Below are positions 1 through 8,328 of a stretch of 8,328 nt of DNA, in pieces. Both the position numbers and the translations under genes were made by a program. Every line of letters begins with the position of its first letter. Position 1 is the first letter of the stretch. The notes beneath the pieces were generated by a model. The model did no database searches, was not told the origin of the DNA, and saw nothing but the letters and a program-made list of their open reading frames with translations. Source of the stretch: a plasmid. Where the stretch lies: NCBI RefSeq assembly GCF_056712565.1, contig NZ_JBWXXM010000005.1. One strand, given 5' to 3'.

Positions 1-486
1 ACCAAGAGGCACACCAACAATAAAACTAAACATTAATGCCACAATTTTTGCCACACCTACATCGACCGCACTTTTCTCCAGCGTGATAAACAAAGGTCGC
101 CAGTTACCAGTTTCTATTGCATTTTTAAAATCAGAACCAACATCATATAGAAAAGATACTCGACTGGTGATTTTAAGCGACTTTGATATCTTCGTTAAAT
201 TCTTAGATAACTCATCATAATTAACAGACTCTAACGCATTAAAAATAGCATCCCGATCAACCTTACTGAATTTCTTATCCAGTACATTCTTATACTTTTC
301 AAATGCTGCCAGAGCTTCATCAACACCTTGAATTTTCTTTCCTTTAGACTTTTCCGCTAAATCCTGAGCAATTTTTGCGTATTTTTCTCCATATTGTTCG
401 GTTATATATTGATAAAATCCAACCATAGTATCAACAGCATCTTTTATCTGGCTCTTTTCAAGAGCATCCTGAGCTTCTTTTAATTT
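1..486 (-). CDS. cka: Pore-forming (channel) domain segment of the colicin gene, open to the window start but out of frame with the upstream part; partial at window edge
   Basis: Reverse-complement translation in the frame whose codons occupy (3,2,1),(6,5,4)... is stop-free from 498 down to 1: [166 protein letters not shown]. This matches the colicin E1/Ia/K/5/10 channel domain as I recall it (not searched). That frame has a stop at 499..501, so it cannot join the upstream ORF without a 1-nt correction. Confidence 0.85.
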
Positions 487-1556
487 CTGCTCTGCCTCTT
501 AACCTCAGCGGCCTTACCATCCCTGAAACTAACAGCATTCTTAAGTTCATTTTCAACTGCGGAGTACTCAGCCTGCTTAGCTTCAAGCTGACGCTGTAGT
601 TTTTTCTGAACGTCACGCCATCCCGGAAATCCGGTGACCTTCACGTCAACACTCTTCTGAGCGTTTTCAAGCTCTCCTGCAACTCTGGAAACAGTAGCTT
701 GCTTACTCTGTACATCACTTTCAGCCTTCGCCAGTTCAGCTTTCGCCTCAGCTAAACGCTTCTCTGCTTCCGCCACCGCCTGTTTCTCTTCATTAAGAGT
801 TTCATGTTCAGCGACCTCTGCATTTTCACGAGCCTTTTCTTCAGCTTCCTTCTGTTTATTCACATCACCAATTTTACTTTGCAATGTATTTTTATAAGAA
901 TTAAGTTTGCTAATATCTGCATCAAGCTGATTTGATTTTTTTTGCAACTCATCAACATCCCTCTCAAGATCAGTGATACCATGATAAGAATGATGCTTGA
1001 ATACTTTTTTCATCTCCTCGATTTTCTTCTGTTTTTCACTAATCTGTGTAGCAATTTTATTCTTCTGCTTTTGTTTTTCATTAATTACATTACCCACCAC
1101 CTTCGAACTCTTATCCATATCACTGACCTGAGCATTCGTTGGTGCAGTATTAACTGAAGCAGTGTTATTGTTGTTATTTCCTGAGCTTTCTGCAAAAAGT
1201 GATGGCATATCACTAATTAAAGAATTAAGAACTCTGGAGACCCCTCCAAATGGATTATCAACCAGAGTTGAATTATCTTCTGTCATAACAATACCATTCA
1301 TCACCGGAAGGCCATCATTATTAATGACAACATCACCCCACGGAGTCAGATATGACTCACCGGTTTTCATCACAGTTGATGTAGAACCAGATGAATTTGA
1401 ATTTCCCTGACCACCATTATTACCATGCCCAGAGCCACCACCCCAGTGAACCCCACTATTACTATTATTATTTCCACCTTGCTGATTCAGATTCGCCCCT
1501 GTTCCCCCCATAGACTCACCAGCAGTTGGTCCATATCCACTTAGTTCTTTAGCCAT
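480..1556 (-). CDS. cka: Colicin, N-terminal translocation and central coiled-coil/receptor-binding part (358 codons), ending at a premature stop caused by a frameshift
   Basis: ORF track 480..1556 (-). Gly/Asn/Ser-rich N-terminus followed by [36 protein letters not shown]...[13 protein letters not shown], which closely resembles my recollection of the colicin A Tol-dependent translocation domain ([38 protein letters not shown]...RVLNSLV). A long K/E/A-rich coiled-coil follows. SD-like AGAGGA lies 7 nt upstream of the ATG (minus strand, + coords 1563..1568). Assignment to colicin K specifically is circumstantial: total length would be about 548 codons if the frameshift were repaired, and the immunity protein is 96 aa. 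Confidence 0.92.
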
Positions 1557-1600
1557 AAATTCCTCTTTGATAATTAAAACAATAAATTAAAAACAATATA

Positions 1601-1631
1601 CTGTACATATAACCACTGGTTTTATGTACAG
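1601..1631 (-). promoter_or_regulatory. Tandem overlapping LexA boxes (SOS operator) of the colicin promoter
   Basis: Minus-strand sequence CTGTACATAAAACCAGTGGTTATATGTACAG contains two overlapping CTGT-N8-(A/C)CAG motifs, the double SOS box typical of colicin promoters. It lies about 45 bp upstream of the colicin ATG. A candidate -35 TTGACA is at 1659..1664 (minus strand). Confidence 0.85.
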
Positions 1632-1796
1632 TAAAAACCTACTACTCAGCATTGTCCATGTCAAGAGCATGGATTTTCATTTTTGCAATAAGGATCACAC
1701 TATGGGGAGGCAGGCATTGAGAACGTCGAAACAGAACACCGGAGCAAATCAGGATGAGATATAAAACTGTTGGATCATGAAAAAACGGAGAACGAT

Positions 1797-2087
1797 GTGA
1801 GCAAATCACCCCGCCATAAACTGAACAAAACAGACAAACGACTTCTCGACACCCTTGTTGCTGCCGGATATGAGCATGACAAAGCCCGTGACCTCATCCA
1901 GAAACAGGTTTACACGCTGACACTGGCTGATCAGCGTCATGTGGTCAGTGAAATCAGTAATGGTGTGAATCCCACCCAGGCTTACTCGGCGGTATACCAG
2001 GCAAGACGCATTCGCCTCGCCCGTAAATATCTGAACGGTAAAAAGGTTATGGAAGAAACCGGGGAAAATACGCCCCCATCAGCGTAA
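1797..2087 (+). CDS. Hypothetical small basic protein (96 aa from GTG 1797; 105 aa if TTG 1770 is used)
   Basis: ORF track 1770..2087 (+). There is no in-frame ATG near the 5' end; GTG at 1797 is preceded by GGAG (1788..1791) at good spacing. The product is hydrophilic and basic (VSKSPRHKLNKTDKRLLDTLVAAGYEHDKARDLI...). I do not recognise a family and it could be non-coding. Confidence 0.25.
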   Translation: MSKSPRHKLNKTDKRLLDTLVAAGYEHDKARDLIQKQVYTLTLADQRHVVSEISNGVNPTQAYSAVYQARRIRLARKYLNGKKVMEETGENTPPSA

Positions 2088-2357
2088 GGATTTCTTTTGC
2101 CGCTCCAGAGACTCCAGTTTTTTACGCAAATCCTCTCTTTTTTGGGCATCTCTGGTGCCAGCCAGCTCTGCTCTCAACTCATCGATCTGAAGTTGTATCT
2201 TCAGTCTGTTACTGAACATTTTCTGTCTGGCATTAACATCCGCAACAATGCCGTTTTTTGTCTTCTCGGCCTTTTGTTGAAAAACATTGCTGTCCGCATG
2301 ACTGGCAACCGAAGCAGAAAGAACACTAAAAAGCAGGACTGGCACACATTTTTTCAC
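2079..2357 (-). CDS. Small secreted/periplasmic protein with Sec signal peptide (92 aa, GTG start); candidate entry-exclusion or envelope protein
   Basis: ORF track 2079..2357 (-). N-terminus MKKCVPVLLFSVLSASVASHA/DSNVF has the n-, h- and c-regions of a signal peptide with an A-x-A-type cleavage site. The ~71-aa mature part is highly charged and helical. GTG start with AGGA about 9 nt upstream. The opposite-strand ORF 2097..2402 looks like antisense noise. Confidence 0.45.
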   Translation of the reverse strand: MKKCVPVLLFSVLSASVASHADSNVFQQKAEKTKNGIVADVNARQKMFSNRLKIQLQIDELRAELAGTRDAQKREDLRKKLESLERQKKSLR

Positions 2358-2478
2358 GGGATTATTCCTGACTCATTGACCATCAAATCACATTGGGAGT
2401 AAACCGACGTATGATAAGAGATACTCTTCGGAGATATAACTCCCTGAGTATCAAGATTAAAAACGCAAGGAGATGTTT

Positions 2479-2901
2479 ATGAGATCTGCCGCTGCCAGGC
2501 TGCTTCTGATACCTCTGATAACAGCAACAATAGCTCTTACAGGATGCACACCAAAGACCAGCCTGGAACGACATACCCGGCATTATGTTTATGCTTCAGA
2601 TGATGGATTTGATCCTAACTTCTACACCCAGAAAGCAGACACCATACGTATGATGCTCCCGTTCTTTCAGCAGTTCCGGGATATGGGGATGAAAGACAAA
2701 GCAGCCGGAGTATCAGCAGAAACGGCACAGCAACGTGTAAAAGAATTCCACTCAGAAAAATTTTTTCACTCACTCCGGAGCACAACAGCCTTTGCTGGCA
2801 GAAAATACACAAACAGCGATATGCCTTCGCCGAAAAAAATGAAACTAATGGCAGACACCATTTCTGCGGTTTATCTCGATGGATACGAGGGCAGACAGTA
2901 A
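2479..2901 (+). CDS. Lipoprotein (140 aa), possible entry-exclusion-type protein of ColE1-like plasmids
   Basis: ORF track 2473..2901; I prefer ATG 2479 because the SD AAGGA (2467..2471) is 7 nt upstream. N-terminus MRSAAARLLLIPLITATIALTGC is a signal peptide ending in the lipobox L-T-G-C. The position between colicin promoter and mob genes is where ColE1 carries exc genes as I remember it; homology was not verified. Confidence 0.65.
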   Translation: MRSAAARLLLIPLITATIALTGCTPKTSLERHTRHYVYASDDGFDPNFYTQKADTIRMMLPFFQQFRDMGMKDKAAGVSAETAQQRVKEFHSEKFFHSLRSTTAFAGRKYTNSDMPSPKKMKLMADTISAVYLDGYEGRQ

Positions 2902-3274
2902 GGGATTTACCATAATCCCTTAATTGTACGCACCGCTGAAATGCGTTCAGCGCGATCACGGCTGCTGACAGGTAAAAATGGCAACAAACCACCCGAAAAG
3001 CTGCCGCGATCGCACCTGATAAATTTTAACCGTATGCATAGCTATTCAGCCATGTGAATAACGCTGGTTTTGCCTGCGTAAACCTCATGACACTGTTTTT
3101 TTTCCATCTTTTCAGTTGATGACATACGCAGACATCGCGGGATGAGGCTGAGGAATGAGCGCGATCTGGCAAAGAGGCAAAACACAGCAACAAAAACGAC
3201 ACGCCAGAATCGCGCCCGGATGCGTTTTTAACGCGTTCCGGTACCATCTGGCAACCTCCCGGAACAACTCACCG

Positions 3275-4873
3275 TCACATCCCTATTGACGGGCCACGCC
3301 ATACCCGTGCTTCCCGTTCCTGCTCTTCATGCCAGGACCGCGCACGCTCCCGTTCCAGGCGTGCCTGCCTTTCCTGTTCATCCCTTATCTGCTGTTCGTG
3401 ATAAATAACCGACTCAAGTGGTCCACCTGCCCGGCTAATCTCTGCACCTGCTGACTCAAGTCGTCGCACTGTTCCCTCAGTTGCCCGTTCTCCTGTCGTG
3501 TCAGCTCGAACATATGCTGCAAATCCGTGAAGGCGCTCTCCCAGTCTTTCAGCCGCTGCGTATAGTCCTGCTGCAATTGCTCTAAGGCGTTCAGTAAGTG
3601 CATTTCCAGCTCTGTCATACTCACTTACTCCCTGACCAGTCTTACTGCGTTCTTCTTCTCCACCGTCCAGTTGTTTTCCCCCTTCACCCCGGACGGCAAC
3701 ACCAGAAATTTCCCGTTCCTGCCCTCGTGATACGTCACACCCCATGTTTTTTCCCGGAGTTTCGCCAGCGTCTCTTCCTGGTCCCTGATAGCCAGGATGT
3801 TCGCCGCAATCCGGCTTTCCTGCCACTGAATCAGCCCCCATGACGCCAGAAAAATCCCGCCCGTGACGCAAAGCGCCGTCAGCGACGGGTACAGTATCCG
3901 CCCTTTGACCAGCTTCCAGAGCAGCTCTTCCTGCCGCCGGGCCAGTTCGTTCTCTGTGGCGCTGAACTGCGCGTTCACGGCACTGTTCAGCGTCTCCAGT
4001 TGTTCTTTCACCGCTGCTGTGTGTGCGCTGATAGCGTCTCTGATTTTCTGCCCGTTTAAGTTCAGTTCCCTGTCTACAGACGCTTCGAGCTTCCTGAACT
4101 CGCTGTTCAGCATGTTCTCTGTAGAGACGGCACGCTCTTTCAGTTTCTTCTCGAAGTCTGTCCCCATTTGTAAAAGATTGCTCATACAGCGCCCCTTTCA
4201 GCCTGAGATTACGCCCACCCTCCGGGTCGGCGATACTGATACTGCTCCTGGTTGTCCTCACAACCTCAAAACCTGCCGCTGTAAGCGCCTCAGTGACATC
4301 CTGACGCGTTTTTAGCGCTCCGGCATGGTAAAGAGCCTCCAGTCCCCTCGTAATCGCTTCTGCGGCCTCCTGTTTCGCTTTCGGCAGATTATTCGGGGTG
4401 ACAAGTGTCCGCCTGTTCTCCGGTGCGTTCGGGTCGTGCAGCCCGTAATGGTGATTCACCAGTGTCTGCCAGGCATTGATTCGCGGACGGTCCGCTCGGT
4501 CGTAATAGGGCTGGAGCCGTTTTCCGCTCGCCAGCTCCATATTCGGGATGACAAAATTCAGCTCAAGACGCCCCTTGTCCTGGTGCTCCACCCACAGGAT
4601 GCTGTACTGATTTTTTTCAAGACCGGGCATCAGTACCCGCTCAAAGCTCTCCATCACCCTTTCACGCTCTCCCGGTGGCAGGGTCTGCTCTGCAAAAGAC
4701 AGAACCCCCGAGGTGTATTTTTTCGCAAACGGCGTGGCATCGATGAGTTCCCGCACCTCTTCGGGAGCACCCCGCAGAACTCTCGCCCCTTCCCGGTTAC
4801 GCTCCCGGCCCAGCAGGTAATCAACCGGACCACTGCCACCGCCTTTTCCCCTGGCATGAAACTTAACTATCAT
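3275..4873 (-). CDS. mbeA: Mobilization relaxase MbeA (ColE1-type, MOB HEN family)
   Basis: ORF track 3275..4900 (-). From the internal Met it reads MIVKFHARGKGGGSGPVDYLLGRERNREGA...ILWVEHQDKGRLELNFVIPNMEL...QPYYDRADRPRINAWQ, matching ColE1 MbeA as I recall it. The ATG at 4873..4871 overlaps the mbeC stop in the usual coupled arrangement. The compositionally odd C-terminal half fits mbeB and mbeD being encoded in other frames. Confidence 0.92.
   Translation of the reverse strand: MIVKFHARGKGGGSGPVDYLLGRERNREGARVLRGAPEEVRELIDATPFAKKYTSGVLSFAEQTLPPGERERVMESFERVLMPGLEKNQYSILWVEHQDKGRLELNFVIPNMELASGKRLQPYYDRADRPRINAWQTLVNHHYGLHDPNAPENRRTLVTPNNLPKAKQEAAEAITRGLEALYHAGALKTRQDVTEALTAAGFEVVRTTRSSISIADPEGGRNLRLKGALYEQSFTNGDRLREETERACRLYREHAEQRVQEARSVCRQGTELKRAENQRRYQRTHSSGERTTGDAEQCRERAVQRHRERTGPAAGRAALEAGQRADTVPVADGALRHGRDFSGVMGADSVAGKPDCGEHPGYQGPGRDAGETPGKNMGCDVSRGQEREISGVAVRGEGGKQLDGGEEERSKTGQGVSEYDRAGNALTERLRAIAAGLYAAAERLGERLHGFAAYVRADTTGERATEGTVRRLESAGAEISRAGGPLESVIYHEQQIRDEQERQARLERERARSWHEEQEREARVWRGPSIGM
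3385..3618 (-). CDS. mbeD: Mobilization protein MbeD, nested within the 3' part of mbeA in another frame
   Basis: ORF track 3385..3624 (-), product M(S)MTELEMHLLNALEQLQQDYTQRLKDWESAFTDLQHMFELTRQENGQLREQCDDLSQQVQRLAGQVDHLSRLF. ATG at 3618 with GGGAG upstream; an alternative GTG at 3624 abuts the mbeB stop. Confidence 0.75.
   Translation of the reverse strand: MTELEMHLLNALEQLQQDYTQRLKDWESAFTDLQHMFELTRQENGQLREQCDDLSQQVQRLAGQVDHLSRLFITNSR
3625..4185 (-). CDS. mbeB: Mobilization protein MbeB, nested within mbeA in another frame
   Basis: ORF track 3625..4185 (-), product MSNLLQMGTDFEKKLKERAVSTENMLNSEFRKLEASVDREL... with a hydrophobic segment (LYPSLTALCVTGGIFLASWGLI). SD-like AAAGGGG upstream of the ATG. 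The stop abuts the mbeD start. Confidence 0.8.
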   Translation of the reverse strand: MSNLLQMGTDFEKKLKERAVSTENMLNSEFRKLEASVDRELNLNGQKIRDAISAHTAAVKEQLETLNSAVNAQFSATENELARRQEELLWKLVKGRILYPSLTALCVTGGIFLASWGLIQWQESRIAANILAIRDQEETLAKLREKTWGVTYHEGRNGKFLVLPSGVKGENNWTVEKKNAVRLVRE

Positions 4874-5210
4874 CCCGTTCTCCCTGTTTACGGACCTCAT
4901 CCCTCAGCTCACTCAGTTCACGTCCGATGGCCATCAGTGCAGCCACCACATGAACCCGGTCATGCCCCGACCACTGTCCGCTGTTTATCTTCCGGGCTAT
5001 CTGATTCAGGTTATTGCCGACCGAAGCGAACTGGCGCAACAGCGGCGGTGCCAGTGTCGGAAGACCTGACGTTTTCGATGGCGGTGCCCCCAGGCAGACC
5101 TTACGCATCCATGACGCAAGTTGTTTTCCCTCACAACGTGCCAGCAGCCGCGCATGTTCCTCATCCGTGACCCGTATCGTGAGCATCCTTTCGCGTTTCA
5201 CCGGTATCAT
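4863..5210 (-). CDS. mbeC: Mobilization accessory protein MbeC (relaxosome component)
   Basis: ORF track 4863..5363 (-). The conserved part MLTIRVTDEEHARLLARCEGKQLASWMRKVCLG...LAPPLLRQFASVGNNLNQIARKINSG...HVVAALMAIGRELSELR matches ColE1 MbeC/MobC as I recall it. Start chosen at ATG 5210 (GGAGG 7 nt upstream); ATG 5186 is an alternative. The first 52 codons of the track ORF are treated as spurious. Confidence 0.85.
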   Translation of the reverse strand: MIPVKRERMLTIRVTDEEHARLLARCEGKQLASWMRKVCLGAPPSKTSGLPTLAPPLLRQFASVGNNLNQIARKINSGQWSGHDRVHVVAALMAIGRELSELRDEVRKQGERDDS

Positions 5211-5253
5211 TAAAAACCTCCGACAGACTCCCCACACATGGAGAAACAGAACT

Positions 5254-5445
5254 GTGACTAAACAGGAAAAAACCGCCCTTAACATGGCCCGCTTCATCAG
5301 AAGCCAGACGCTGACCCTGCTGGAAAAACTGAATGAACTGGACGCCGACGACCAGGCTGACATCTGCGAAGCGCTTCACGACCACGCTGACGAGCTTTAC
5401 CGCAGCTGCCTCGCACGCTTCGGAGATGACGGTGAAAACCTCTGA
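5254..5445 (+). CDS. rop: Rop/Rom RNA one modulator protein (63 aa, GTG start)
   Basis: VTKQEKTALNMARFIRSQTLTLLEKLNELDADDQADICEALHDHADELYRSCLARFGDDGENL is near-identical to ColE1/pMB1 Rop as I recall it. GTG start at 5254 with GGAG about 10 nt upstream. The ORF-track entry 5014..5445 is an in-frame upstream extension with no support. Confidence 0.93.
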   Translation: MTKQEKTALNMARFIRSQTLTLLEKLNELDADDQADICEALHDHADELYRSCLARFGDDGENL

Positions 5446-5535
5446 CACATGCAGCTCCCGGAGACGGTCACAGCTGGCCTGTGAGCGGATGCCGGGAGCA
5501 GACAAGCCCGTCAGGGCGCGTCAGCGGGTTTTAGC

Positions 5536-5600
5536 GGGTGTCGGGGCGCAGCCATGACCCAGTCACGTAGCGATAGCGGAGTGTATACTGGCTTAATCAT
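5536..5600. other. bom / oriT region (basis of mobility) with relaxase nic region
   Basis: Sequence gggtgtcggggcgcagccatgacccagtcacgtagcgatagcggagtgtatactggcttaa corresponds to the pMB1/ColE1 bom region as I recall it, including the ...TATACTGGCTTAA... nic region. It sits between rop and the origin as in pBR322. Confidence 0.6.
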
Positions 5601-6253
5601 TTGGCATCAGTGAGGATTGTATGAAAAGTGCACCATGCCGGGTGTGAAATGCCGCACAGATGCGTAAGGAGAAAATGCTCGTCCAGGCGCTTTTCCGCTT
5701 CCTCGCTCACTGACTCGCTCCGCTCGGTCGTTCGGCTGCGGCGAGCGGTATCAGCTCACTCAAAGACGGTAATGCGGTTATCCACAGAATCAGGGGATAA
5801 CACCAAAAGAAACATGTGAGCAAAAAACAAGAACCCGGAAAAGGCCACGCAGCTGGCGTTTTTCCATAGGCTCCGCCCCCCTGACGAGCATCACAAAAAC
5901 CGACGCTCAAGTCAGAGGTGGCGAAACCCGACAGGACTTAAAGATACCAGGCGTTTCCCCCTGGTGGCTCCCTCGTGCGCTCTCCTGTTCCGACCCTGCC
6001 GCTTACCGGATACCTGTCCGCCTTTCTCCCTTTGGGAAGCGTGGCGCTTTCTCATAGCTCACGCTGTTGGTATCTCAGTTCGGTGTAGGTCGTTCGCTCC
6101 AAGCTGGGCTGTGTGCACGAACCCCCCGTTCAGCCCGACCGCTGCGCCTTATCCGGTAACTATCGTCTTGAGTCCAACCCGGTAAGACACGACTTAACGC
6201 CACTGGCAGCAGCCATTGGTAACTGGATAGTGGATTTAGATACGCAGAACTCT

Positions 6254-6281
6254 TGAAGTTGAAGCCTTATAGCGGCTACAC
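6254..6281 (+). promoter_or_regulatory. RNAI promoter (-35 TTGAAG, -10 TACACT)
   Basis: TTGAAG at 6254..6259, a 16-nt spacer, TACACT at 6276..6281, then the RNAI start about 6289. Same architecture as pMB1. Confidence 0.65.
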
Positions 6282-6288
6282 TGGAAGG

Positions 6289-6392
6289 ACAGCATTTGGT
6301 ATCTGTGCTCCACTAAAGCCAGTTACCCGGTTAAGCAGTCCCCAACTGACTTAACCTTCGACTAAACCGCCTCCCCAGGCGGTTTTTTCGTT
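6289..6392 (+). ncRNA. RNAI antisense copy-number control RNA
   Basis: Starts at ACAGCATTTGGTATCTG (pMB1 RNAI starts ACAGTATTTGGTATCTG) and ends at the hairpin plus T-run ...ccgcctccccaggcggttttttcgtt. Its promoter has -35 TTGAAG (6254..6259) and -10 TACACT (6276..6281) as in pMB1. Loop sequences differ from pMB1. Confidence 0.8.
6364..6392 (+). terminator. RNAI intrinsic terminator
   Basis: Stem aaaccgcct / aggcggttt with loop cccc, followed by a T-run (ttttttcgtt). Confidence 0.7.
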
Positions 6393-6402
6393 TACAGGCA
6401 GC

Positions 6403-6432
6403 AGATTACGCGCAGAAAAAAAGGATCTCAAG
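6403..6432 (-). promoter_or_regulatory. RNAII promoter (-35 TTGAGA, -10 TAATCT on minus strand)
   Basis: Minus-strand sequence cttcTTGAGAtcctttttttctgcgcgTAATCTgctgcctGTAAAC has a 17-nt spacer and matches the pMB1 RNAII promoter as I recall it. Confidence 0.7.
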
Positions 6433-6454
6433 AAGATCCTTTGATCTTTTCTAC

Positions 6455-6459
6455 TGAAC
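6455..6459. repeat. IS2 target-site duplication (TGAAC), right-end copy
   Basis: TGAAC immediately outside the IS2 end at 6460; an identical TGAAC lies at 7791..7795 outside the other end. IS2 is known to make 5-bp duplications. Confidence 0.85.
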
Positions 6460-6500
6460 TGGATTTGCCCCTATATTTCCAGACACCTGTTATCACTTAA
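6460..6500. repeat. IS2 terminal inverted repeat (IRR)
   Basis: Imperfect inverted repeat partner of 7749..7790; shared core CCAGACA...ATATCACTTA. Confidence 0.8.
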
Positions 6501-7376
6501 CCCATTACTGGCTTGCTGCCGTAGATATTCCCGTGGCGAGCGATAACCCAGTGCACTATGCGGATGCCATTCGTTATAATGCTCGAACGCCTCTGCAAGG
6601 TTCTTTGCTGCCGTTAACCCGTCTGGTTTGGGCATGACACTGATGTAGTCACGCTTTATCGTTTTCACGAAGCTCTCTGCTATGCCGTTACTCTCCGGAC
6701 TCCGCACCGCCGTGCTCTTCGGTTCAAGCCCCAACATCCGGGCAAACTGCCGTGTTTCATTAGCCCGGTAGCATGAACCATTATCCGTCAGCCACTCTAC
6801 TGGAGACGCCGGAAGCTCGTTGCCGAAGCGGCGTTCCACCGCTCCCAGCATGACGTCCTGTACTGTTTCACTGTTGAAGCCGCCCGTAGTGACCGCCCAG
6901 TGCAGTGCCTCACGGTCACAGCAGTCCAGCGCGAACGTGACTCGCAGTTTTTCTCCGTTATCACAGCGGAACTCGAACCCGTCAGAGCACCATCGCTGAT
7001 TACTTTCTTTCACAGCCACTCTGCCTGTATGTGCCCGTTTCGATGGCGGTACAGCAGGTTTTCGCTCAAGCAACAGCGCATTCTGGCGCATGATCCGGTA
7101 AACACGTTTGGCATTGATCGCAGGCATACCATCAAGTTCTGCCTGTCTGCGAAGCAGCGCCCATACCCGACGATAACCATACGTGGGCAGCTCTCCGATA
7201 ACATGGTGTATACGGAGAAGCACATCCGTATCATCAGTGTGACGACTGCGGCGGCCATCCATCCAGTCATCGGTTCGTCTGAGAATGACGTGCAACTGCG
7301 CACGCGACACCCGGAGACAACGGCTGACTAAGCTTACTCCCCATCCCCGGGCAATAAGGGCGCGTGCGCTATCCAC
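6471..7376 (-). CDS. insD: IS2 transposase OrfB (InsD), normally expressed as an OrfAB fusion by -1 frameshifting
   Basis: ORF track 6471..7376 (-) 301 aa, (M/V)[33 protein letters not shown]...[12 protein letters not shown]... with a DDE-type integrase core (...[37 protein letters not shown]...). The first codon is GTG and overlaps the end of insC. Confidence 0.95.
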
Positions 7377-7699
7377 TTTTTTGCCCGTCCATATTCAACG
7401 GCTTCTTTGAGGAGTTCATTTTCCATCGTTTTCTTGCCGAGCAGGCGCTGGAGTTCTTTAATCTGCTTCATGGCGGCAGCAAGTTCAGAGGCAGGAACAA
7501 CCTGTTCTCCGGCGGCGACAGCAGTAAGACTTCCTTCCTGGTATTGCTTACGCCAGAGAAATAACTGGCTGGCTGCTACACCATGTTGCCGGGCAACGAG
7601 GGAGACCGTCATCCCTGGTTCAAAGCTCTGCTGAACAATTGCGATCTTTTCCTGTGTGGTACGCCGTCTGCGTTTCTCCGGTCCTAAGACATCAATCAT
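7334..7699 (-). CDS. insC: IS2 OrfA (InsC), helix-turn-helix regulator / N-terminal part of the transposase
   Basis: From ATG at 7699: [58 protein letters not shown]...[26 protein letters not shown]. The 15 extra N-terminal codons in the track ORF 7334..7744 are rejected. Confidence 0.93.
7377..7383 (-). other. IS2 programmed -1 ribosomal frameshift heptamer (A AAA AAG) at the insC/insD overlap
   Basis: Minus-strand sequence ggcA AAA AAG tgg is in the OrfA zero frame. A -1 slip reads AAA AAA GTG GAT AGC = KKVDS..., continuing into InsD. This is a known IS3-family mechanism. Confidence 0.7.
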
Positions 7700-7748
7700 C
7701 TGCTCTCCAATGACTAGTCTAAAAACTAGTATTAAGACTATCACTTAA

Positions 7749-7790
7749 ATAAGTGATATTGGTTGTCTGGAGATTCAGGGGGCCAGTCTA
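7749..7790. repeat. IS2 terminal inverted repeat (IRL)
   Basis: Reverse complement from 7790 reads TAGACTGGCCCCCTGAATCTCCAGACAACCAATATCACTTA... The lysis-gene reading frame terminates inside this repeat at TGA 7775..7777. Confidence 0.8.
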
Positions 7791-7918
7791 TGAACCGCGA
7801 TCCCCGTCAGTTCAGAAGACGAAGATGGTGCAACGGTTCCTCCTTGTACATCACGAATATAGTTTGCTTGACATCCTGACAAGAATAATATTGTAATTAG
7901 AAAAATTATTATTTTCAT
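7775..7918 (-). CDS. ckl: Colicin lysis (bacteriocin release) lipoprotein, with its 3' end altered by the IS2 insertion (47 codons; ends ...GIAV-HRLAP)
   Basis: Not in the ORF track (short). Reverse complement of 7793..7918 translates [42 protein letters not shown], with signal peptide, lipobox L-S-G-C and the [14 protein letters not shown] motif typical of colicin lysis proteins. Reading continues across the TSD into the IS2 IRL (H R L A P, stop TGA at 7775..7777). The displaced native end (Q codon and TAG) lies at 6451..6456 on the other side of IS2. Confidence 0.8.
7791..7795. repeat. IS2 target-site duplication (TGAAC), left-end copy
   Basis: TGAAC directly abutting the IS2 end at 7790; identical to 6455..6459. 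Confidence 0.85.
7868..7897 (+). promoter_or_regulatory. Candidate immunity-gene promoter located inside the lysis-gene coding region
   Basis: TTGACA at 7868..7873, an 18-nt spacer, TGTAAT at 7892..7897, about 50 bp upstream of the immunity ATG at 7948. Confidence 0.4.
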
Positions 7919-7947
7919 ATTTCTTTCCAACAAAAGTAAAAATACTT

Positions 7948-8238
7948 ATGCATTTAAAATACTACCTACATAATTTACCTGAATCACTTATACCATGGAT
8001 TCTTATTTTAATATTTAACGACAATGATAACACTCCTTTGTTATTTATATTTATATCATCAATACATGTATTGCTATATCCATACTCTAAATTAACCATA
8101 TCTAGATATATCAAAGAAAATACAAAGTTAAAAAAAGAACCCTGGTACTTATGCAAGTTATCTGCATTGTTTTATTTATTAATGGCAATCCCAGTAGGAT
8201 TGCCAAGTTTCATATATTACACTCTAAAGAGAAATTAA
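7948..8238 (+). CDS. cki: Pore-forming colicin immunity protein (96 aa, integral inner-membrane protein)
   Basis: ORF track 7948..8238 (+). Very AT-rich and hydrophobic (…[33 protein letters not shown]…[26 protein letters not shown]), consistent with several membrane spans. It is convergent with the colicin gene and sits between colicin and lysis genes on the opposite strand, the canonical arrangement for pore-former immunity genes. Its stop (8236..8238) overlaps the colicin stop (8235..8237). Confidence 0.8.
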
Positions 8239-8328
8239 ATCCCTAACAACTCATTAAGTTTGCTCAACTCATCATCCCCTATGTAAGAAGAAACAATACC
8301 TGTGACAATTGCAATCCCCCAGAAACCA
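8235..8328 (-). CDS. cka: C-terminal tail of the colicin gene (last 29 codons plus stop), continuing from the window start across the circular junction
   Basis: Reverse complement of 8235..8327 translates [30 protein letters not shown]-stop, the end of the hydrophobic hairpin and C-terminus of a pore-forming colicin. The stop TAA is the reverse complement of 8235..8237. Window 8325..8328 (acca) equals window 1..4 (acca), and joining 8324 to 1 gives a continuous ...[15 protein letters not shown]... reading frame. Confidence 0.75.

Follow-up and report, generated by a model that had tools for sequence, protein, structure and literature searches.

Organization of the window and of its two ends

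We analysed a stretch of plasmid DNA of 8,328 nt (contig NZ_JBWXXM010000005.1 of the RefSeq assembly GCF_056712565.1; hereafter the window), which carries the genes of a colicin K operon, a ColE1-type replicon, a set of mobilization genes and one copy of the insertion sequence IS2. Results of our comparative analyses leave little doubt that the window represents a mobilizable circular plasmid of the pColK family (ColE1 type) in one complete copy, opened inside the colicin K gene (cka) and bearing the tetranucleotide ACCA at both of its ends. The identity of the plasmid, its circular permutation, its anatomy and a single-nucleotide indel in cka were obtained directly from computed comparisons, while the existence of the plasmid as a monomer circle in the cell is what we infer. 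The features located at the two ends and in cka are the following (all positions are those of the window).

1..4: first copy of the terminal redundancy ACCA, identical to 8325..8328 and corresponding to the same four bases of the reference plasmid as the second copy
8325..8328: second copy of the terminal redundancy ACCA, whose removal is needed to close the circle and leaves a unit of 8324 nt
480..1556, minus strand: 5′ part of cka (translocation and receptor-binding region), an open reading frame (ORF) of 358 aa with a ColA_N domain match and a premature stop resulting from a frameshift
498..500: site of a 1-nt deletion in cka, with TT on the plus strand vs. TTT in all references (AAA to AA on the coding strand)
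1..497, minus strand: 3′ part of cka before the wrap (most of the pore-forming domain), in the reference frame and here out of frame with the 5′ part
8235..8324, minus strand: tail of cka after the wrap, comprising the last 29 codons (FWGIAIV...NELLGI) and the stop codon
7948..8238, plus strand: cki, encoding the colicin K immunity protein of 96 aa (PF17500, positions 1-96 of 96, E-value 9e-57), with a 4-nt overlap with the convergent cka stop

Joining of the two ends

The window opens with ACCAAGAGGCAC and closes with ...CCCCAGAAACCA. Its prefix and its suffix share ACCA (k = 4), as had been noted in a sequence-only reading of this DNA, with no match at larger k. On the minus strand, the frame of cka before the wrap terminates exactly at base 1, and the frame starting from 8327 ends at 8235. 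The Gly codon at the join (ACC, read as GGT) is written twice in the window, once per end, and after collapsing of the duplicate 29 unique codons and a stop are left, so that both the coordinates and the codon count proposed for this tail agree with its translation. Joining of 8324 to 1 keeps the pore-domain part of cka in frame, while joining of 8328 to 1 shifts it; the same reading had rightly stated that the frame is continuous with the former connection only. The peptide joined across the ends (191 aa) matches the Pfam colicin pore-forming domain PF01024 over positions 4-185 of 185, unbroken at the join, and the C-terminal domain expected of a pore-forming colicin is thereby found on the joined peptide. 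On the collapsed circle, cka runs on the minus strand from an ATG at 1556 through base 1 into 8324..8235, where its stop meets cki in the direct convergence described earlier. The colicin gene had also been described as wrapping around the ends of the window. This holds for the pore domain, which wraps in frame, but not for cka as one continuous ORF, given the 1-nt deletion at 498-500.

Comparisons with public sequences assigned both ends to one site. In the circular plasmid CP054461.1 (6988 bp), window positions 1..3163 correspond to 3826..6988, positions 3164..6459 to 1..3296 and positions 7787..8328 to 3287..3829, and both ends of the window fall on one set of four bases, 3826-3829. The contig ABGHSQ010000092.1 (8325 bp) matches window 3104..8328 with its positions 8325..3101 at 100% identity, and window 1..3103 with its positions 3104..1 and one indel. 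The collapsed 8324-nt unit is the rotated reverse complement of this contig minus one base. Since the contig ends at window 3103/3104, each of the two sequences runs unbroken through the cut point of the other. In turn, 59 PLSDB records, including 42 with ≥99% identity, contain a 200-nt sequence of the collapsed junction without interruption, and it is internal in every listed match. The proposal that the two ends are adjacent, on a circle or in a tandem copy, is thus borne out by the shared CP054461.1 bases, by the mutual permutation with ABGHSQ010000092.1 and by the contiguous junction in PLSDB.

The chance probability of a 4-nt match between two ends is about 1/256 (~0.4%), which is weak alone and not compelling by itself. 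One could thus suppose that the ends are not adjacent and share ACCA by chance, the window being part of a larger replicon or of a chromosomal insertion with a split colicin gene. We consider this account almost certainly wrong, as in dozens of circular plasmids the two ends coincide at a single position and the sibling contig ABGHSQ010000092.1 crosses the join uninterrupted. Moreover, the whole backbone is accounted for, with IS2 as the sole extra, and the 48 sites in RefSeq Escherichia coli that match the cka stretch are all plasmid-borne, with none on a chromosome.

Unit length and topology of the plasmid

The size of the unit equals the sum of 6988 bp of the widespread pColK backbone, 1331 bp of IS2 and 5 bp of the target duplication, i.e., 8324. 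The length of about 8324 bp put forward in the sequence-only reading is therefore correct for the sequence of the window, but the intact sibling plasmid has 8325 bp, not 8324 bp. A self-comparison of the window, of the kind suggested along with that estimate, revealed no long direct repeat. It follows that each gene is present once and that the window is one unit. The accompanying statement that every gene expected on a ColE1-type plasmid occurs once proved essentially right as an inventory, with no duplication, but it passed over the frameshift in cka and the presence of an IS2 copy that alters the 3′ end of the lysis gene. On computational evidence, the plasmid is predicted to be a covalently closed circular molecule, as is characteristic of the ColE1 type.

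A monomeric circle would have been linearised at an arbitrary point inside cka, either by the assembly or in the record, and a residual 4-nt overlap would have been left. Several points weigh against this view. A redundancy of 4 nt is unusually short for common assemblers, and from sequence alone a monomer circle cannot be distinguished from a head-to-tail multimer. In addition, the record NZ_CP082064.1 (17,997 bp, designated ‘complete’) consists of about 2.5 head-to-tail copies of pColK, one of them with an internal deletion removing cka, and is either a true multimer or an artefact of assembly from long reads. Tandem pColK copies are thus found in public ‘complete’ records, and two of the PLSDB records match at multiple places. 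The window might accordingly be one repeat unit taken from a head-to-tail multimer or from a long-read concatemer assembly, and taken alone it is compatible with such an excerpt. Yet we regard this origin as improbable. Only 4 nt are repeated, which makes the window exactly one unit; the independent assembly yielded a single 8325-bp contig in the other permutation and without terminal redundancy; and the exact core of cer, a site that resolves multimers, is present in the window. Besides, multimerization would not abolish the circularity of the plasmid, and the conclusion of a circle or a tandem copy stands either way. We therefore retain the monomer circle as the preferred reading. For annotation, the value of this result is that the record should be treated as circular, its last 4 bases trimmed, and cka annotated across the origin, not as two partial genes.

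The colicin operon and insertion of IS2 into the lysis gene

The remaining features of the colicin operon, together with those of the IS2 insertion, are located as follows.

1599..1633, minus strand: near-perfect palindrome upstream of cka, TACTGTACATAAAACCAGTGGTTATATGTACAGTA
7775..7918, minus strand: ckl, encoding the colicin release lysis lipoprotein of 47 aa (PF02402, E-value 3e-23), its 3′ end chimeric with IS2
6460..7790, minus strand: IS2 (IS3 family), 1331 bp, with imperfect terminal inverted repeats; bounds taken from comparison with the empty site
7334..7744: IS2 orfA, full-length match to NF006928 (IS2 TnpA)
6471..7376: IS2 orfB, full-length match to NF006918 (IS2 TnpB)
6455..6459: left copy of the 5-bp target-site duplication TGAAC
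7791..7795: right copy of the target-site duplication TGAAC

A TTGACA hexamer is present approximately 25 nt upstream of the palindrome, which has the form of paired overlapping LexA (SOS) boxes, typical of colicin promoters. The immunity gene cki is located between the tail of cka and ckl, on the strand opposite to both, and the predicted ckl product contains the lipobox LSGC of a lysis lipoprotein. The order of these genes is that of a cka-cki (opposite strand)-ckl operon under putative SOS regulation.

The element inserted in ckl makes up about 16% of the window and combines the features of IS2, namely a length of 1331 bp, imperfect inverted repeats, orfA and orfB, and a 5-bp target duplication. 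It is located in the penultimate codon of ckl, after TGAAC; at the unoccupied site the sequence is TCTACTGAACCGC, whose CTA corresponds to the ckl stop codon on the complementary strand. The coding strand of ckl now ends with ...GTT CAT AGA CTG GCC CCC TGA, and the C-terminus changes from ...AVQ to ...AVHRLAP, i.e., the terminal Q is replaced by HRLAP before the stop. A gap at 7790 relative to the references was considered as a second indel and rejected; it is an alignment artefact, the end of IS2 (...TCTA) resembling the target TCTAC.

By exact-protein lookup, the chimeric 47-aa lysis protein was detected in 5 NCBI contigs, originating from E. coli and Salmonella enterica, the longest of which, ABGHSQ010000092.1, has 8325 bp. 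The occurrence of the ckl::IS2 form in isolates of both E. coli and Salmonella is of minor biological interest. In RefSeq complete E. coli genomes the IS2/ckl junction was covered in 0 of the 7411 matching records. It is absent also from PLSDB, where the sole full-coverage match was pColK-K235, only through its IS2 located elsewhere, and a 35-mer spanning the junction gave 0 matches in each of the viral, genome and metagenome contig collections.

Relation to known colicin K plasmids

For decades, the family of colicin K plasmids has served as a textbook system. The plasmid with an intact cka is already in public assemblies, and the finding that it is circular is correct and already known. ABGHSQ010000092.1 (assembly GCA_023519835.1) represents the same plasmid and shares with the window its backbone, its IS2 copy together with the insertion site, and its chimeric lysis protein, but has TTT at window 498-500, an intact 548-aa cka product and no terminal redundancy. 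About 20 circular pColK plasmids of 6988 bp, found in E. coli, Shigella and Salmonella (e.g., pSCU-103-4, which is CP054461.1), share 99.8-100% identity with the window over 84% of its length, that is, over all of its non-IS2 part, and have the same gene order. These plasmids differ from the window in the lack of IS2, in a ckl that ends with ...AVQ and the stop codon, and in an intact cka; in CP054461.1 there are, in addition, one substitution at window 5125 and the loss of 1 nt from the cer core.

The reference colicin K plasmid, pColK-K235 (NC_006881.1, 8318 bp), shows 99.4% identity overall, one IS2 copy and the same operon architecture. Its IS2 (positions 6118-7451) is, however, inserted at window ~1879-1884, inside a hypothetical ORF upstream of cka, and is 97.6% identical to the IS2 of the window, with 32 mismatches. 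Cka of pColK-K235 differs from the repaired Cka of the window at two residues (D94E and I491V), and several small indels and mismatches are present elsewhere. As both the IS2 copy and the insertion site are different, the IS2-bearing pColK plasmids arose independently, and the pColK backbone has gained IS2 on at least two separate occasions. This independent acquisition at two sites of the 6988-bp backbone is likewise of minor biological interest.

Frameshift in the colicin K gene

The cka ORF extends from 1556 to 480 and comprises 358 aa, its stop preceding the pore domain, and the window in its written form does not contain an intact continuous colicin reading frame, which may be due to a sequence error. 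Restoration of the missing T yields a Cka of 548 aa that is 100% identical to the Cka proteins of CP054461.1 and ABGHSQ010000092.1, and the 1-nt deletion is the sole difference between the unit and the latter contig in 8325 nt. None of the 37 PLSDB records and none of the 38 RefSeq complete E. coli records containing the 61-nt stretch carries the deletion, a count based on the alignment of all records with this stretch at <99% identity (98.4%, with one gap, in every listed match). The deletion is also absent from NC_006881.1, CP054461.1, ABGHSQ010000092.1 and one further compared pColK record, and the exact-protein lookup returned no entry for the truncated product of 358 aa. In its written form, the plasmid would encode colicin K only in its part for translocation and receptor binding, while the immunity gene is intact.

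Two explanations of the frameshift were weighed. According to one of them, to which we give an even chance, the base is missing through an error of sequencing or of the consensus, and the actual plasmid has 8325 bp and an intact cka; according to the other, cka has undergone a true loss-of-function mutation. An error is suggested by the location of the deletion in a homopolymer (TTT to TT), by its being the only difference from ABGHSQ010000092.1 and by its absence, and that of the truncated product, from the records listed above. On the other hand, homopolymer errors usually concern runs longer than 3 nt, and no error is seen in the other 8324 bases when they are compared with ABGHSQ010000092.1. 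The same plasmid lineage, moreover, already carries IS2 in its lysis gene. Colicin genes are costly, and inactivating mutations in them are plausible, which also speaks against an error.

If the frameshift is genuine, the lineage may be decaying stepwise from a colicin producer to an immune non-producer (a ‘cheater’), a course of events that we put forward tentatively and with some doubt. Its first step would have been the insertion of IS2 at the 3′ end of ckl, common to at least 5 E. coli and Salmonella contigs. In the second step the pore domain would have been lost by the private 1-nt deletion, with cki, replication and mobilization staying intact. Such a lineage would be losing toxin production while keeping immunity, which would constitute a modest result.

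Replication, mobilization and multimer resolution functions of the backbone

The other features of the backbone are given below. NCBIfam provided no family for the colicin, immunity, lysis, MobC and Rop proteins, and Pfam was used for these.

6291..6391, plus strand: RNAI, antisense copy-number regulator (Rfam RF00106, 77.4 bits vs. a gathering score of 47, full length, positions 1-102 of 102)
5254..5445, plus strand: rop (rom), encoding a protein of 63 aa (PF01815, E-value 9e-37)
5500..5620: putative bom/oriT-like region, assigned by eye and including ...GGGTGTCGGGGCGCAGCCATGACCCAGTCACGTAGCGATAGCGGAGTGTATACTGGCTTAA...
4863..5186, minus strand: mbeC, encoding a MobC/NikA-like relaxosome accessory protein of 107 aa (PF05713/PF21983)
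3275..4873, minus strand: mbeA, relaxase gene, an intact ORF of 532 aa (NF047848 relax_MbeA_E1, 717 bits vs. a cutoff of 500)
3625..4185, minus strand: mbeB, located within the mbeA region in a different frame (PF04837, MbeB_N)
3385..3618, minus strand: mbeD, encoding a mobilization/entry-exclusion protein (NF033829, 121 bits vs. a cutoff of 60)
2905..2934, minus strand: core of a cer-type Xer recombination site for multimer resolution, GGTGCGTACAA-TTAAGGGA-TTATGGTAAAT, an exact 30-mer match with 0 expected by chance
2479..2901, plus strand: gene for an exc2 family lipoprotein (NF033828, 179 bits vs. a cutoff of 35)
1797..2087, plus strand: hypothetical ORF conserved in pColK plasmids, the site of the IS2 insertion in pColK-K235
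2079..2357, minus strand: hypothetical ORF of 92 aa conserved in pColK plasmids, with a signal-peptide-like N-terminus (MKKCVPVLLFSVLSASVASHA)

With RNAI on the plus strand at 6291..6391, the RNAII primer and the origin would be located on the minus strand, toward position ~5850. IS2 has its outer end at 6460, just beyond the 3′ end of RNAI (6391) and only some tens of bases upstream of the expected RNAII promoter region, and an effect of this IS2 end on primer transcription or on copy number is possible.

The region at 5500..5620 presumably corresponds to the bom region of ColE1 and pBR322, which it resembles; a 30-mer taken to represent pBR322 bom/nic gave no match in the window within 3 mismatches. 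The MbeA protein is missing from the PLSDB gene tables of related records, which is probably due to a limitation of the tables or to annotation of the gene as a pseudogene in the source records. Neither Pfam nor NCBIfam yielded a match for the two hypothetical ORFs (1797..2087 and 2079..2357).

The 30-mer pattern used to locate the recombination core is that of ColE1 cer. In CP054461.1 one A is missing in the centre of this core (position 6747, window 2922), which converts TTAAGGGA to TAAGGGA on the cer strand. The canonical 8-nt cer spacer is present in the window, in ABGHSQ010000092.1 and in one further compared pColK record.

The backbone thus contains an RNAI/RNAII replicon, Rop/Rom, an mbeA-D region and a cer-type site, the last identified by its core sequence only, and is organized in the usual manner of ColE1-type plasmids with a pore-forming colicin. 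The likeness to ColE1 would extend to the putatively SOS-controlled pore-forming colicin operon with an immunity gene on the opposite strand and a lysis gene. The difference concerns the toxin, as ColE1 carries colicin E1 and its immunity specificity vs. colicin K here.

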